A stretch of DNA of 64,000 nt from Escherichia phage Ec_Makalu_002. A model generated the notes under the pieces. It was not told the origin of the DNA. It made no database searches and saw nothing but the letters and a program-made list of their open reading frames with translations. Numbering within the stretch: the stretch's first letter is position 1; every line of letters begins with the position of its first letter. Position numbers and translations under genes: made by a program. The DNA is taken from sequence record MN709127.1. One strand, 5' to 3'. Shown here in pieces: positions 47,361 to 53,155 of this stretch.

Positions 47361-48761
47361 ATGTCAAACAATACTATTAACCATGTAAAAGACGATGCTC
47401 AATACGTCAAGTTTAACCCTGTAAATGATTGGCCTCAAAGCATTACCAACGTACAAGCGGCTTTAGCCGCTATTAATGGCTTTGCCGTAAATGGATTACC
47501 GGACGCTACGGAAGATACAGCCGGGATCGCTGCAATCGCAACTCAGGAAGAAGTAAACGACGGGGTAGTAGACAATAAGATCGTGACTCCAAAAACACTG
47601 GCTGTTAAAATGTCACGTCCAGATGCTACAAAAGAAGTAAAAGGCATTACCCGATTTGCCACAATGGAAGAATCGCTGCAAGAGAGCAACGAGAACATGG
47701 CAATCGGTCCAGACACACTAAACCATTACTTCACCACTAAAAAGGCGTCAGAGAGCGTTCAGGGGACTATTAAGATATGTTCTCTTGAGGCGGCAAAGAT
47801 TGGCAGTGATGACACAATGGCAGTAACACCGAAAAAGATGCACACTGCCATTGCACAGATTGTACCGGGATTAATTCCAGATCAAAACACAGCAACCGAA
47901 AGCGCACAGGGTTTAGTTCAGTTAGCAACCAGTGCGCAGGTTTTACAAGGCCAGATTCGAGAAGGTTTTGCAATTAGTCCTTATGCATTTGCAAATGCTC
48001 GCGCCAATGAGAATCAGGCGGGTACTGTTAAGATCGCCAGTCAGTCACAGATGAATGCTGGTTCAGATGATACTGTAGTTGTTTCTGCTAAGAAGTTTGC
48101 AAGCACTAAGGCAACAACGTCTCAATACGGTATTGTTAAACTACGAGACACCGTAGGAAGTGAGGCTAATGCTGCACTATCAGCAAATGCTAAGGTTCTT
48201 CCTAGCACTGGCGGTACGGTAAGCGGAAACGTCTATAAAGGTTCAAACTCAGACGGCAACCAGTTTGTTACTAAAAATGAATTAGCGAATCACGCAATGC
48301 CAATTGGTGGTATTATCCTTTCTGGATTCAATGCCGACCGAGGTGACTTTCTGATCTGTAATGGTCGTTCACTGAATAAAAATCAATATCCGCAATTATT
48401 TTCTGCGATTGGTTATACCTTTGGTGGTTCAGGTGACAATTTTAACATTCCTGATATGCGCGGTTTAGTTGCTCGTGGTTGCGATCATGGAAGAAACCTT
48501 GATCCAGGTCGTCGATTTGGTTCTTATCAAGAAGACGCAATGCAGAGAATTACTGGTAAATTCCCTGTAGCTGACCGCTGGCGCGGTTGGTATGGTGGCG
48601 CATTTACTGCACAGCGCGGTCAATGGAGCACGAACTATAAAAATGGTGGGGGTGATGATTGGGGTTCTACTGTTAACTTTGACTCAGGAAGATCCGTAAG
48701 AACGGCTAACGAGACTCGCGTCAAGAGTCTGGCATTAAACTATATCATAAGGGTGCGCTAA
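47361..48761 (+). CDS. 12: short tail fiber protein gp12
   Basis: 466 aa; Gly/Thr/Ala-rich repetitive fibre sequence; synteny. Confidence 0.75.
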   Translation: MSNNTINHVKDDAQYVKFNPVNDWPQSITNVQAALAAINGFAVNGLPDATEDTAGIAAIATQEEVNDGVVDNKIVTPKTLAVKMSRPDATKEVKGITRFATMEESLQESNENMAIGPDTLNHYFTTKKASESVQGTIKICSLEAAKIGSDDTMAVTPKKMHTAIAQIVPGLIPDQNTATESAQGLVQLATSAQVLQGQIREGFAISPYAFANARANENQAGTVKIASQSQMNAGSDDTVVVSAKKFASTKATTSQYGIVKLRDTVGSEANAALSANAKVLPSTGGTVSGNVYKGSNSDGNQFVTKNELANHAMPIGGIILSGFNADRGDFLICNGRSLNKNQYPQLFSAIGYTFGGSGDNFNIPDMRGLVARGCDHGRNLDPGRRFGSYQEDAMQRITGKFPVADRWRGWYGGAFTAQRGQWSTNYKNGGGDDWGSTVNFDSGRSVRTANETRVKSLALNYIIRVR

Positions 48762-50530
48762 TGATTGAACAATTAAACATCCACGAGATCCCACACGTTG
48801 ACGGTGTACCAAGCGAAGGACAGCACCGTATTAATTGGATCAAGAATGGCGAATGTTTAAGCGCAGCAACGACACAGACTGGCAATGACGGGACGCTTAA
48901 CCGCGCCCCGGTTGCAATTCAAGAAAACGTTGCACGCGTAAACGAAAACGCAAAATCAACCGTCGCTAAAGTTAACGAGGTTGTAACGGCGGTTAACGAT
49001 ATTAAAACAACTTTAGGGGTAATTTCTGACGGAAGTATCATTGATGTGGTTAACCAGACTGTCGCAAAAGTTGAATCCGTCGAAGAGAACTTAGGAGAAA
49101 CAGCAAGAACTCTGCAAACAACGGTAGACGCTGTATCAGAACTTAACATCAAGATTGGTGATCGCCCCGCTGCCGATCCGAGCACAAGAACAATCTATGA
49201 TGACATTTCTTTCATCAAACAAGAAATGGGTTCTTATCCTAACTTTAATATCAATGGTTCCCCTGATGCTGGCAGTTCCGGTTCTGGCATCAAATACCGA
49301 GTTATTCAGAATACCGCAGCATTAAATGACCACGGTCGCCGAATCGTTCAGCTTGAAAACGACTGGCAAGATTCTGACGTAGGCGAGTTAACAAGACAAG
49401 TTAACAAAATGCGCAGTGAGATCGGCGACACGTCTCTTGCCACACAAGAAAATGTGTATGTTCGTCTCCGCACCAACGCAAGAAACATTGCTAACCTATC
49501 AAACGAAGTTCTAGAAGTCAAGAAAGCAATTTTGTTTGATTCAATCCCTGATATCGGGACTAAAGTCACTACGCTGGGCACTAATTATGAACTTCTAAAC
49601 AATGATGTTAATGGTGTAGATTCCGGTATTCGTCCTCGTCTTCTGGCTGTCGAGAATAAGATCGGAACGCCTCAATCGGCAGGAAGCATTGATTATCGAT
49701 TAACCAACACAGAGCGAGAATTTTTAGATCTTAAACAGGTTGTTGGTGTAAGCGGTGCTGACGGTTTGCGCGGTGAAGTTGTTCGACTTTCCAATGAGAT
49801 TGGCACTGACAGCGATCGACATACTCTAGCCGGACGTATTAAAGTTGTAGAAAACACTCAGGGTCGGTTAGAAGCAAGCGTACAGGACATGGAACAGCTT
49901 GTAGGTGATCGCGAATCAGGTTTGACCGCTGGCGTTATTAAACTATCAAGTGATATCTATGGCGATGATGGTTCAGAAGATCCATTTACTCAGAAAGGCG
50001 TGATTAAAATCGTCAAAGAGCTACAAACATCTAACGGAAACAAAGTAGATGATGTACCTGATGACGGTTTCCATTATCTTCGTAAACGCGGAGAATGGGT
50101 GCAAGTTGCATATGCTGCTGGAGCATTTAAAAATACCGCAGATATTACGGTTGAACTTGACGAACAGGATGTTTATAAACAGATTCCACTTAACGACATG
50201 GCGGCAGAAGTTAATGCTCGTCAAATGGTTAAGAGCGAATCTCTTGTTACGGTTAACGACAAAGGCTTATTCCGTTGTGATTTCCGTTGTTCTGTAAATG
50301 CGGCACATAACGCTACTTTCGTAGTCGGTATTGCTAAAAATGGTCTGATTGTACATGAGGTACGAAATGGTCATTATGGAGCTGATGATTTAATTAGCTA
50401 TTCTACCAGTGCTTTCCTAAATATTGAAAAGGGCGACCGGATCGATATTCGCATTAAGGGCGTATCCGAAGAAGCATTAGCGCAACAGCTACAAATTAAA
50501 GAGTTCCTCTTTGGAATTTCTCCGGTATAA
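48761..50530 (+). CDS. wac: fibritin (whisker, neck) with foldon-like segment plus extra C-terminal globular domain
   Basis: 589 aa; long coiled coil; foldon-like PDDGFHYLRKRGEWVQV; ~140 aa C-terminal extension. Confidence 0.75.
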   Translation: MIEQLNIHEIPHVDGVPSEGQHRINWIKNGECLSAATTQTGNDGTLNRAPVAIQENVARVNENAKSTVAKVNEVVTAVNDIKTTLGVISDGSIIDVVNQTVAKVESVEENLGETARTLQTTVDAVSELNIKIGDRPAADPSTRTIYDDISFIKQEMGSYPNFNINGSPDAGSSGSGIKYRVIQNTAALNDHGRRIVQLENDWQDSDVGELTRQVNKMRSEIGDTSLATQENVYVRLRTNARNIANLSNEVLEVKKAILFDSIPDIGTKVTTLGTNYELLNNDVNGVDSGIRPRLLAVENKIGTPQSAGSIDYRLTNTEREFLDLKQVVGVSGADGLRGEVVRLSNEIGTDSDRHTLAGRIKVVENTQGRLEASVQDMEQLVGDRESGLTAGVIKLSSDIYGDDGSEDPFTQKGVIKIVKELQTSNGNKVDDVPDDGFHYLRKRGEWVQVAYAAGAFKNTADITVELDEQDVYKQIPLNDMAAEVNARQMVKSESLVTVNDKGLFRCDFRCSVNAAHNATFVVGIAKNGLIVHEVRNGHYGADDLISYSTSAFLNIEKGDRIDIRIKGVSEEALAQQLQIKEFLFGISPV

Positions 50531-50538
50531 GAAATTAA

Positions 50539-50565
50539 AGGGGCGTTAAGCCCCTTTTCCGTTTA
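50539..50565 (+). terminator. terminator/attenuator hairpin after wac
   Basis: Hairpin aggggc-guuaa-gccccu followed by UUUCCGUUU. Confidence 0.45.
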
Positions 50566-50576
50566 TAGGTGATATT

Positions 50577-51509
50577 ATGTCAGGATATGTAACCAATAAC
50601 CCAAGAGAATTAAAAGACGCTATTCTGCGTCGTTTAGGCGCACCAGTAATTAACGTAGAAGTCACAGAAGACCAGATTTACGATTGTATTCAGAGAGCAC
50701 TAGAACTCTATGGGGAATATCATTTCGATGGTGTGAATAAAGGATATAAAGTATTTCGTGTTAGTGCAGAGCAAGCGCAACATGGGGTATTTGATTTAAG
50801 CGATTCTGGAGTATTTGCAGTAACTAAAATAATTCGAACAAACGTAGGTAGCGCGGCTACGATGGATGGCACTGCCGTTTATCCGTGGTTTACCGACTTT
50901 CTGTTGGGTTTAGCTGGTGTAAATGGCGGTTTAGGATCTGGATGTAGTAAATTTTATGGTCCAAATGCAATGGGCGGTGATCTAGGATATTTCGAACAGC
51001 TTATGAGCTATCGAGCCACTATGCAAAATATGCTTAATCCACTGCCAGACTATTGGTATAATAGCGCAAACGGACAACTTAAGATTACAGGAAACTTCCG
51101 AGAAGGTGATCTCATTGTTGTTGAATTATATGTTAAAAGCTATGTAGACGTTCCTGATATGATCGGCGCGGTTGCTGGTTATGCTCATGCTGGAGGATGT
51201 TCTACCGCTGGCGGGATTAGCGCCGTTTATGATAATCCAACTGCTGGTTTAAGCGGGATTGTTGCTGGCATGGGACCGATCAGTGAGAACAAGCAGGGCG
51301 CATATAATAACCGTTGGGTTAAAGACATGGCAACCGCTTTCACTAAGGAGGTGTGGGGGTCCATCATGGCTAAACATCAAGGTCTGCAATTACCAGGTGG
51401 TGTCACTGTTGATGGTATCCGAATCATTGAAGAAGCACGCGCCGACATTGAGAAATTGCGACAAGAACTACTTGACTTAGATCCACCATTTGGTATACTA
51501 ATGATATAA
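50577..51509 (+). CDS. 13: neck protein gp13
   Basis: 310 aa (T4 309); synteny. Confidence 0.8.
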
Positions 51510-51562
51510 AATAAATATGGGTATATGATAACATATACCCTATGTAATATCGGAGATACTAA

Positions 51563-52378
51563 ATGGAACATTATGTATACAAAATAACCAACAAAATAAA
51601 CGATAAGATTTATGTCGGTGTTCGGTCTTGTGATGGATTAGCCGAAGACGATACAAAATACATGGGAAGTGGAAAAATAATAAAACAAGCTATTAAACAT
51701 CATGGATTAGAAAATTTCACCAAAGAGATATTGTCAAAATTTGATAGCAGAGAAGATGCGGATAAAGAAGAGTCAAGGATTGTTACGGTTGATTTTGTCA
51801 AGAGAGAAGACACGTATAATATAGCAGAAGGCGGTGGAACTGTTTGTATGTGGAAGGTTTCTGATGAAGCAAAGATAGAAGAAATGAGAAAAAAGATCTC
51901 AGAGAAAAATACTGGAAGAAAACATACTAAAGATACAAGACAAAAGATGTCCGCATCTCAAAAGGGAAGGAAGCATACGGAAGAAACAAAAGAAAAGATG
52001 AGGCAAAATAACTTAGGAAAAGTTATTGCAGAAGAGACAAAAGAAAAGTTAAGGATGATTAATTTAGGAAAAAGACACACAGAAGAAACGCGAAGAAAAA
52101 TGTCTGATTCACATAAGGGTCTATCCTTATCCGATGAGGTGAAGGATAAGATAAGACAAAAACACACAGGACGTGTTTTTACTAAAGAATGGAGAGAAAG
52201 AATTAGCAAATCTAGAATCGGAATAACTAGCACTAGATCAAGAAGAATAAGCATCAACGGAGTGATATACAATAGCATAGGAGAAGCTGTTATAAAATTA
52301 AACGTTAAGAGAGGATTGATTGTCGGAAGACTTAAATCAAATACCGATAAAAACAAAAATTATTTCTTCGTAGATTAA
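51563..52378 (+). CDS. free-standing GIY-YIG homing endonuclease (Seg-like)
   Basis: 271 aa; N-terminal YVYKITNKINDKIYVGV GIY-YIG motif; repeated KGxKHTEETKEKM NUMOD3-like units. Confidence 0.75.
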   Translation: MEHYVYKITNKINDKIYVGVRSCDGLAEDDTKYMGSGKIIKQAIKHHGLENFTKEILSKFDSREDADKEESRIVTVDFVKREDTYNIAEGGGTVCMWKVSDEAKIEEMRKKISEKNTGRKHTKDTRQKMSASQKGRKHTEETKEKMRQNNLGKVIAEETKEKLRMINLGKRHTEETRRKMSDSHKGLSLSDEVKDKIRQKHTGRVFTKEWRERISKSRIGITSTRSRRISINGVIYNSIGEAVIKLNVKRGLIVGRLKSNTDKNKNYFFVD

Positions 52379-52414
52379 TAAATTGGGGGAGTATTCCCCC
52401 ATTTGGAGTAACAT

Positions 52415-53155
52415 ATGTTTAACAACACTCTTTTTGCTCGCCTTGAATCGCAAAAGGATTATGAGAATACACGACAAACAGAGATTCTCAATCCTTATGT
52501 GAACTTTCACAAATATACAAATACTCAGACGTTAGCCGACGTTATGGTCGCCGAAGCTATTCAGATGCGAGGTGTAGAATTATATTACATCCCTCGTGAA
52601 TTTGTCAAACCAGATATGATCTTTGGTGAGGATGTTCAAAGCAAATTTACTAAAGCATGGAAATTTGCGGCTTATATTAACTCATTTGATGGGTATGAAG
52701 GAGCGGGTAATTTCTTCTCTAGTTTCGGGTATCAAGCTAATGATGAATTAACCATAACCATAAATCCAAATTTATTCAAACATCAAGTAGATAACCAAGA
52801 GCCTAAATCCGGTGATTTATTTTACATTCCTATGAGCAATGATTTATTTGAAATCTCATATGTAGAGCCATATCAGCCGTTTTTTCAGGCTGGCAAAAAT
52901 GCCATGCGTAAAATTATTGCAGAGAAATTCGTGTATAGCGGTGAGGAATTGCGACCAGAATTACAACGCAATGAGGGAATTAATGTTGATGAGTTTGCGG
53001 ATCTGGATCTTGCACCGATCACTAATCTGGACGGGTTAACAGATATCAACTTAGATCAGTACAAAGAAGATAAGCAATTCAGAAGCGAAGGACAAGATTT
53101 TATTGACCCATTTGACCCAATTAATGGCACTGGTTCACCTTTTGCTAATTTTTGA
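52415..53155 (+). CDS. 14: neck protein gp14
   Basis: 246 aa (T4 256); synteny. Confidence 0.75.

Follow-up and report, generated by a model that had tools for sequence, protein, structure and literature searches.

The neck-whisker fibritin (Wac) encoded in the window, the 64,000-nucleotide stretch of DNA analysed here, retains its foldon and continues beyond it into a head (residues 450–589) that is predicted with high confidence to adopt a C1q/TNF-type jelly roll. On this foldon-bearing Krischvirus fibritin, we consider it an evenly balanced proposition that the head forms a knob with two roles: a nucleus for folding and registration of the trimer, and a docking point for the long tail fibre (LTF) of the same phage. 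The expanded C-terminus of RB49-type fibritins has already been described, and the fold assignment is modestly new rather than surprising.

The wac gene and the architecture of its product

The wac coding sequence (fibritin, neck whisker; 48761..50530, on the + strand like every feature below) opens with an ATG that overlaps the gp12 stop codon (TAATG) and encodes 589 aa, exactly the open reading frame that the initial annotation had called fibritin. The gene has gp12, for the short tail fibre, on one side and gp13, for the neck, on the other, which is the location of a fibritin gene, and its product matches both PHROG 1056 ('fibritin neck whisker'; residues 1–581, E 2.8e-185) and Pfam Fibritin_C. 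Identity is 98.8% to the Wac of JEP8/ECD7 and 95.6% to that of RB49 (589 aa). The source phage is a Krischvirus, an RB49-like coliphage, and RB49-type fibritin is of the same protein class as the window Wac, with the same gp12–wac–gp13 synteny. A GC-rich stem-loop (AAAGGGGC-GTTAA-GCCCCTTT, 50537..50557) follows 7 nt past the wac stop codon; in Makalu_003 and G2494 a terminator is annotated at the corresponding position.

T4 fibritin (PDB 1aa0, 2bsg, 3j2o) has in common with the window Wac an N-terminal neck-binding domain, a segmented coiled coil, a foldon and the location between genes 12 and 13. The N-terminal domain (about residues 1–50, 48761..48910), placed by alignment to the N-terminus of T4 fibritin, keeps P11, V13, D14, G15, P17, E19, G20, Q21, W26, I27, N29 and G30, among other residues invariant with T4, and these ~50 aa would bind the neck, a role carried over from T4 (PMC3797505). 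The shaft (about residues 51–432, 48911..50056) was placed by phmmer, which aligned residues 6–431 with the T4 fibritin chains 3j2o/2bsg (E 1.4e-49). Homology suggests that the shaft, which is about 38 residues shorter than that of T4, is a segmented coiled coil, and that the window Wac is a homotrimeric, neck-attached whisker. By its position in the T4 fibritin alignment, the equivalent of T4 whisker helix α11 spans about residues 356–381 (49826..49903).

The foldon-like β-hairpin (residues 433–449, PDDGFHYLRKRGEWVQV, 50057..50107) was identified through Pfam Fibritin_C and through residues shared with T4. PF07921 (Fibritin_C) matches residues 368–451 (E 4.7e-30; 104 bits, cut-off 21; profile positions 2–92 of 93), and in a five-sequence alignment P433, D435, Y439, R441, W446 and V447 are unchanged with respect to the T4 foldon. 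Furthermore, this is the best-conserved C-terminal segment between two Krischvirus clades (0.90). Judged by its sequence, the foldon is genuine, and was kept rather than replaced by the added head. T4 fibritin (487 aa) stops about 4 residues past its foldon, whereas the window Wac runs 140 residues further; the ~100 additional residues first estimated come to 102, and the earlier reading of a foldon followed by a further domain, not by the C-terminus, holds.

Predicted fold of the C-terminal head

The head (50108..50527), in which the strings GLFRC...VRNG and LNIEKGDRIDIRIKG are located, had been proposed as a possible C1q/TNF-like jelly roll from the pattern of these strings, and structure prediction supports this proposal. 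In an AF2 model of the monomer, computed from a nine-row alignment of which one row (P0011) was not demonstrably homologous, the head is predicted as a jelly-roll β-sandwich of about ten strands that is superposable on C1q/TNF domains; a single-sequence AF2 model was poor (pLDDT 47.7). C1q/TNF heads, such as that of BclA, are obligate and very stable trimers. Because the stalk is a trimeric coiled coil plus foldon, the head should form a compact three-fold distal knob with both its termini at the stalk end.

We compared the head with known families at the sequence level. Against Pfam BclA_C (PF18573), which is matched by five of the nine head-family members, the window head scored 21.1 bits (E 3e-4; domain residues 8–124, profile positions 4–113 of 128), below the gathering threshold of 38 bits, which suggests remote homology short of family membership. 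Similarly, Pfam C1q (PF00386) was matched by three of the nine members (best E 0.0097), with the RB49-like P0003 reaching 14 bits against a threshold of 23.7 bits, and the window protein itself gave no match to it at E ≤ 10. Searches of the PDB by sequence, using the single head or a profile, returned chance matches only, e.g. a TCR beta chain and ribosomal protein L15. Sequence identity of the window head to the BclA C-terminal domain and C1q globular heads (PDB 1wck, 3twi, 6z6v, 4oul) is 9–19%, and their stalk is collagen-like, whereas that of the window Wac is a coiled coil with a foldon.

TNF/C1q-like knobs are present on the Sf6/HS1 tail needle (3rwn), PRD1 P5 (1yq5), the tail fibres of cyanophages A4 and A-1(L) (9k09, 8ke9), the lactococcal phage 1358 receptor-binding protein (4l92), TM4 gp23 (9n6a) and the phi812 central spike (9eul). 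The window Wac resembles them as a fibre, here probably trimeric, capped by an exchangeable TNF-like knob; those knobs, however, sit on host-facing tail or vertex fibres, whereas this one sits on a neck whisker, and no sequence relationship of the window head to them was detectable. Many phage proteins in BFVD also pair collagen or fibre repeats with a C1q/TNF-like head. Among fibritins, the JS98-type (double foldon) and the RB43-type (Ig-like domains), examples of which were recovered as P0009 and P0010, are built likewise, their N-terminus and shaft conserved and their distal module exchanged, although their distal folds differ from the window head. The expanded, non-T4 C-terminus of RB49-type fibritin was called 'alien' or 'unrelated', noted as required for folding and, in these descriptions, given no fold (Letarov & Krisch 2013, PMC3797505; Letarov et al. 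2005, J Bacteriol 187:1055, as relayed in PMC3797505 and PMC9569957), whereas here the foldon is seen to be kept and a C1q/TNF fold is assigned. Our literature search found no paper giving the fold of this C-terminus.

Distribution and evolution of the head

The full-length head is present in close relatives, in 57 Krischvirus records (all at least 81% identical), and a diverged head is found in the fibritins of Serratia and Cronobacter phages (eight Serratia records and Cronobacter VP8). The family was seen on fibritins only and never on tail fibres. When the head, by itself or as a profile, served as query in a word-indexed homolog search, two 110-aa fragments were all that came back; such head-only metagenome 'proteins', suspected to reflect gene splitting or internal initiation, instead result from gene calling on the downstream side of an N-run in a scaffold. 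Two further candidates were rejected: P0004, a 696-aa repeat protein (exhaustive phmmer E 1.4e-8 over 6 stretches), whose score was summed over repeats and which had an hhalign probability of 1.8%, and the fibritin head of Providencia phage PSTCR6 (P0011), whose hhalign probability was 2.7% once it was left out of the profile.

The window head is 82.9% identical to that of RB49 and 90.7% to that of JSE, placing it in the RB49-type C-terminal class. Unlike the head of RB49 fibritin, it is, in its sequence, a mosaic of RB49 and JSE alleles: the run of informative sites flips at about residues 488–490 (50223..50230), with RB49-lineage sequence to the left and JSE-lineage sequence to the right. 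The JSE-type tract (50230..50530) is 99.7% identical to JSE and 79.6% to RB49 at the nucleotide level, and its right end is undefined, gp13 being about 98% identical in both lineages. Within Krischvirus the head falls into two allele classes (78% aa identical), with the distal two-thirds swapped. Recombination within the domain can thus exchange the head. No change in gp36 accompanies the swap; gp36 of ECD7, JEP8 and PHB13 is 99.6–99.8% identical to that of RB49. A homing endonuclease next door was considered as a co-conversion cause and is not supported as such, as JEP8 has the JSE-type tract without the endonuclease.

The rate at which the head changes bears on whether the knob could be an auxiliary adhesin or lectin for a glycan of the host surface or environment (LPS/O-antigen, capsule, mucin), with the six whiskers as extra contacting fibres; adhesin activity is known from many fibres on bacterial surfaces and many receptor-binding proteins of phages that have a C1q/TNF-like end. 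Across 17 Krischvirus genes, the head is under purifying selection (dN/dS 0.18), its proportion of variable sites (36%) is close to that of the shaft (35%), and tests for hypervariability and positive selection revealed neither. With two allele classes and at least 81% identity in the 57 records, the head is not diversifying and lacks the high diversity tracking host specificity that marks a receptor-binding tip; in the same phages the gp37 tip is far more variable (54% to 100%, and 65% to 91% where the Wac shafts are near-identical). Among phages carrying the window's head allele, gp37 tips are 65% to 90% identical to that of RB49, and therefore the head type is no guide to the receptor type. 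Confinement of the family to fibritins likewise speaks against an adhesin, as does the analogous TNF-like knob of the P22/Sf6 tail needle, which did not set host specificity (PMC3741392). The head thus appears to evolve like a structural or partner-binding part, its slow change argues against a host-range adhesin, and we regard the adhesin role as improbable.

Candidate roles of the knob

We examined the distribution of gp36, which has 496 aa in RB49 compared with 221 aa in T4. A search with 92A1 as query (E ≤ 1e-8; every match with at least 80% coverage) detected the ~300-aa gp36 extension in 67 of 50,697 phage records (58 Krischvirus, eight Serratia and Cronobacter VP8); the head-bearing records are 57 Krischvirus, the same eight Serratia and VP8, an exact co-occurrence. 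Skers, the Krischvirus without a head match, was considered as a counter-example, and is uninformative because its record is without the entire gp9–gp16 block. In 92A1, a Serratia phage, gp15 shares 66.7% identity with its counterparts in head-less Winklervirus, Erwinia and Yersinia phages, against 57% with RB49 and 56% with T4; for gp13 the values are 65% with RB49 and 69% with T4. In the head-less relatives CBH8 and MHG19, the match to the gp36 extension was confined to a short motif. The lineages, few of them independent and with kinship judged from how two core genes rank by identity and not from a phylogeny, thus appear not to be nearest relatives, which suggests that the co-distribution is not merely the backbone of one clade.

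In the dual role introduced at the outset, the knob would nucleate C-terminal folding and set the register of the Wac trimer, and would dock the phage's own LTF, with the ~300-residue gp36 extension as the likeliest contact. The trimerisation role comes from the literature on RB49 fibritin, for which biochemical trimer evidence was reported, and which requires the expanded C-terminus to trimerise, the foldon alone being insufficient (PMC3797505). The docking role is suggested by the co-distribution, and co-variation of the whisker-tip C-terminus with gp36 was proposed in 2005 (Letarov et al., as relayed in PMC3797505 and PMC9569957). In T4, the gp35 kneecap's CBM-like domain grips whisker shaft helix α11 and not the C-terminal tip (bioRxiv 10.64898/2026.03.06.709160); a tip contact is therefore not required, which counts against docking, as does the swap of the distal head within Krischvirus with gp36 unchanged. 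The α11–kneecap contact is probably conserved in the window phage: ENTQGRLEA (364–372) in the α11 equivalent is invariant between two Krischvirus clades, and homology between the gp35 proteins of RB49 and T4 extends over both domains, whereas three of the four kneecap-contact residues differ (N/Q/N/Q in T4, A/Q/D/E in the window). A knob–LTF contact would add to this T4-type contact and may aid LTF attachment and retraction.

Alternatively, the knob could be a folding and stability cap only, a C-terminal trimerisation domain that replaces a weakened foldon and has no specific partner. The obligate, very stable trimers of C1q/TNF heads would suit such a cap, and so would the interchangeability of other-lineage head alleles on the RB49-type shaft with gp36 unaltered. 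The dependence of RB49 fibritin trimerisation on the expanded C-terminus (PMC3797505) and the location of the T4 LTF contact on the shaft point in the same direction. However, the foldon is still strongly conserved, which would be odd if it were redundant, 140 aa are costly where T4 manages with 27 residues, and a pure cap would leave unexplained why head and gp36 extension co-occur exactly in lineages that are not sisters; we consider a cap without a partner unlikely. Somewhat more doubtful still is that the knob is a true ligand-binding head for a bacterial or mucosal glycan, or an ion- or pH-sensitive element of a fibre-retraction switch; if so, the whiskers of Krischvirus and the related Serratia and Cronobacter phages would be an extra environment- or host-sensing adhesin, beyond an aid to tail-fibre assembly. 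We give almost no credence to an artefact of annotation or sequence (e.g. read-through, or fusion with an ORF downstream), whose sole hint is the 110-aa head-only metagenome calls downstream of a run of Ns, whereas 17 of 17 examined Krischvirus genes run uninterrupted for 1770 nt and are under purifying selection.

The predicted jelly roll provides a concrete fold for a part of RB49-type fibritin that the searchable literature labels just 'alien' or 'unrelated', and the foldon with its C1q-like head would be a natural, very stable trimerisation cassette of possible practical use. The fibre tip is otherwise of an ordinary phage kind, and views of T4-like virion architecture are not overturned. 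That head and gp36 extension co-distribute exactly lends fresh genomic support to the 2005 hypothesis that the tip of the whisker interacts with the knee of the tail fibre, and the two modules to examine for this interaction, the knob and the gp36 extension, are now named.

Foldon and further domain in Wac

The wac ORF (48761..50530, plus strand, ATG start) encodes a fibritin of 589 aa, and its start codon overlaps the stop (TAATG) of the preceding 466-aa ORF. The product of that ORF is a short tail fibre of gp12 type with a phage tail Collar domain, and the gene downstream of wac codes for a neck protein of gp13 type (310 aa). PHROG 1056 (fibritin neck whisker) matched Wac residues 1-581 (E 2.8e-185). 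Through tblastn, 98.8% identity was observed with JEP8, PHB13, 011D4 and ECD7, and 95.6% with RB49, all matches lying under features annotated as wac or fibritin; by this similarity, the window is assigned to Krischvirus.

T4 fibritin is 487 aa long, so the initial annotation was right to call the protein ~100 aa longer. Wac residues 6-431 aligned with T4 fibritin structures (E 1.4e-49), Pfam Fibritin_C matched residues 368-451 (104 bits), and foldon residues P433, D435, Y439, R441, W446 and V447 were invariant among the window, RB49, JSE, Serratia phage 92A1 and T4. After the foldon, Wac continues for 140 residues (450-589) vs four in T4, confirming that the foldon-like segment leads into a further domain rather than the C-terminus. 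The proposed comparison of wac length in related phages gave 1770 nt for 17/17 Krischvirus genes.

Letarov and Krisch (PMC3797505, citing Letarov et al. 2005) sort fibritins by C-terminal type, the RB49 type among them, and the C-terminal moiety of RB49-like Wac has been described as "unrelated" to that of T4 (PMC9569957); the expanded RB49-type C-terminus is therefore already known. The literature searched on fibritin fold and Krischvirus assigned no fold to this moiety; within it, neither the C1q/TNF fold nor the fact that the foldon is retained seems to have been described.

Distribution and fold of the head

By sequence alone, the head (residues 450-589) is nearly an orphan: sequence search gave no PDB match to it, and exhaustive phmmer against 1.84 billion cluster representatives returned, apart from the head's own cluster, only two that are credible, each of ~590-aa fibritins. 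A third match, to a repeat protein, was spurious. Among annotated phages, the head was found in 57 Krischvirus records, showing that the domain is kept in close relatives, and a diverged head (~25-30% identity) occurs in fibritins of Serratia phages 92A1, WSPA, 4S, PS2, Muldoon and SP1 and of Cronobacter phage vB_Cdu_VP8. The Fibritin_C/foldon region precedes it in every case examined.

We scanned nine head-family members against Pfam and obtained sub-threshold but recurrent matches: BclA_C (PF18573) matched 5/9, the window head at E 3e-4 and 21 bits (cut-off, 38 bits) with nearly the whole domain spanned, and C1q (PF00386) matched 3/9. The head falls below the Pfam thresholds of both and is thus not placed in either family. 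Foldseek searches against PDB and BFVD with the predicted head model, a monomer from a shallow alignment, agreed on a C1q/TNF-like fold; one alignment row (Providencia PSTCR6) was not demonstrably homologous to the head family. TWEAK, APRIL and cerebellin were named in the fold comparison, and Foldseek also placed this type of head at the end of numerous phage fibres, collagen repeats being common in them. Together, the Foldseek and Pfam agreement supports, at fold level, the C1q/TNF guess of the initial annotation.

The best viral structural match was BFVD entry A0A1J0MHA5 of Klebsiella phage KPV15 (TM 0.83, 20% identity), a stand-alone uncharacterised protein of 159 aa from a T4-like phage. 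Published work gives KP15-type phages the RB43 (Ig-like) fibritin class, so this entry may represent a free C1q-like module in another Straboviridae lineage.

Lineages, recombination and neighbouring elements

The 17 wac genes split deeply, by shaft, into an RB49-type and a JSE-type lineage (~78% aa identity and dS ~1.6-2 between them), and gp12 (47361-48761) co-segregates with these. Given this co-segregation, the LPS-sugar-specific k-mers that a 2026 receptor-prediction study reported from gp12 as well as from the adjacent genes for fibritin and baseplate wedge (bioRxiv 10.64898/2026.04.02.716166), could in the case of fibritin reflect linkage rather than function.

Window DNA is 99% RB49-like from gp12 into wac up to nt ~50223, and 99.7% JSE-like from there to the gene end, where RB49 is only 79.6% identical, placing the crossover point inside the head at 50223-50230. 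The right-hand junction of the JSE-type tract is invisible because gp13 is ~98% identical in both lineages. JEP8 carries the same tract with a switch ~10-15 codons earlier (residues ~474-481 vs ~489), so at least two separate crossovers have taken place inside the head, within ~50 nt. In a metagenome scaffold (L021), a run of Ns (assembly gap) begins at residue ~474, where JEP8 switches, and could be due to a mixture of alleles in the sample.

Judged from these alignments, the head is not hypervariable: variable sites numbered 50/140 vs 155/449 elsewhere in Wac, dN/dS was 0.18 (shaft, 0.09), and between-clade identity was ~0.75 (shaft, ~0.78), with the foldon as the most conserved C-terminal element (0.90). 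The least conserved part of Wac between the two lineages is the last shaft segment ahead of the foldon, residues 397-421 (nt ~49949-50023; 0.44 vs ~0.78 overall), flanked by the foldon and a conserved segment equivalent to T4 shaft helix alpha11.

A perfect 8-bp GC-rich hairpin (50537-50557), 7 nt 3' of the wac stop and followed by TTTTCCGTTT, was scored solely on the minus strand by a terminator scan, but in the records of relatives it is annotated as a terminator of the plus strand; gp13 begins 20 nt later. Between gp13 and gp14 lies a free-standing GIY-YIG homing endonuclease (51563-52378, plus strand) with SegE-type GIY-YIG, NUMOD3 and I-TevI DNA-binding domains, around which GC falls to 0.33 (51500-52500). 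It shares 96.6% nt identity with that of MIZ4 at the same site; RB49, JEP8 and JSE lack it at this position. Different endonucleases occur at or near this site in the krischviruses phiS (SegC) and G5211, and in JSE and G2494 an endonuclease gene separates gp14 from gp15; this variety marks the gp13-gp15 interval as an insertion hotspot.

Role of the knob

The best-supported model, to which we give middling confidence, is that the knob would act both as a trimer-registering cap, as known from the literature, and as a module docking the phage's own long tail fibre (LTF), most likely at the gp36 extension. In T4, where a study of the virion has resolved how whisker and LTF touch (bioRxiv 10.64898/2026.03.06.709160), the resolved site is on the shaft, not at the whisker tip. 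RB49 gp35 is homologous over both kneecap domains (E 2e-25), so the shaft contact could be inherited in the RB49 class. Two features set that class apart, the knob and the length of gp36 (496 aa vs 221 aa in T4), whose extra ~300 residues contain repeats of gp36-like motifs.

We tested gp36 co-variation at two depths. ECD7, JEP8, PHB13 and 011D4, which have the recombinant head of the window, carry gp36 99.6-99.8% identical to that of RB49; hence, allele-level co-variation was absent among these four. Across 50,697 phage records, the gp36 extension was found in 67 (58 Krischvirus, eight Serratia phage and Cronobacter VP8), and the nine non-Krischvirus records are exactly those whose fibritin bears the head. 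Among the Krischvirus records, 57/58 have the head; the exception, Escherichia phage vB_EcoM_Skers (MW748999.1; L023 1-14000, "complete genome"), has gp8 followed almost at once by the large terminase and is ~9-10 kb shorter than relatives, without gp9, gp10, gp11, gp12, wac, gp13, gp14, gp15 and gp16. Genes of this block are essential, so the gap is very likely an assembly deletion. In gp15, 92A1 comes nearest to Winklervirus, Erwinia, Yersinia and Mosig-like phages without the head (62-67%) and reaches only 57% identity with RB49 and 56% with T4; for gp13 the figures are 65% with RB49 and 69% with T4. The gp36 extension is lacking in these head-less relatives. These identity ranks of two genes, which are not a phylogeny, are suggestive that the co-occurrence of head and extension reflects more than a backbone shared by one clade.

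RB49 gp36 (L005 14157-15647, 496 aa) resembles a T4 gp36 made longer by internal repetition: motifs GDT(M/L)TG..L.AP and Y.E.NKP..AD recur ~three times each. In 92A1 (L022 877-3816), the homologous region lies inside one ORF of ~982 aa annotated "tail fiber protein", which may be a fusion of gp36 with gp37 or a merger made in annotation, and the PS2 homologue is annotated "split hinge connector".

That the knob is purely a stability cap would fit its interchangeable alleles and the T4 shaft contact; this reading, which leaves the retained foldon and the gp36 co-distribution unexplained, we consider unlikely. A host or environment adhesin is likewise improbable: the C1q/TNF fold is often used in receptor-binding tips, but the head evolves slowly, is restricted to fibritins, and does not track gp37 type. 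The receptor tip proper, formed by the last 299 aa of gp37, spans 54-100% identity in these phages, and still 65-91% where Wac shafts are at least 97% identical.

One instructive parallel is the tail needle of P22/Sf6: this trimeric coiled coil comes with different tips, and one of these, a TNF-like knob, did not determine host specificity (PMC3741392). The finding itself is real: a C1q/TNF-like knob, whose function we infer, on a phage fibre, carried by a protein with a C-terminus already recognised as unusual.
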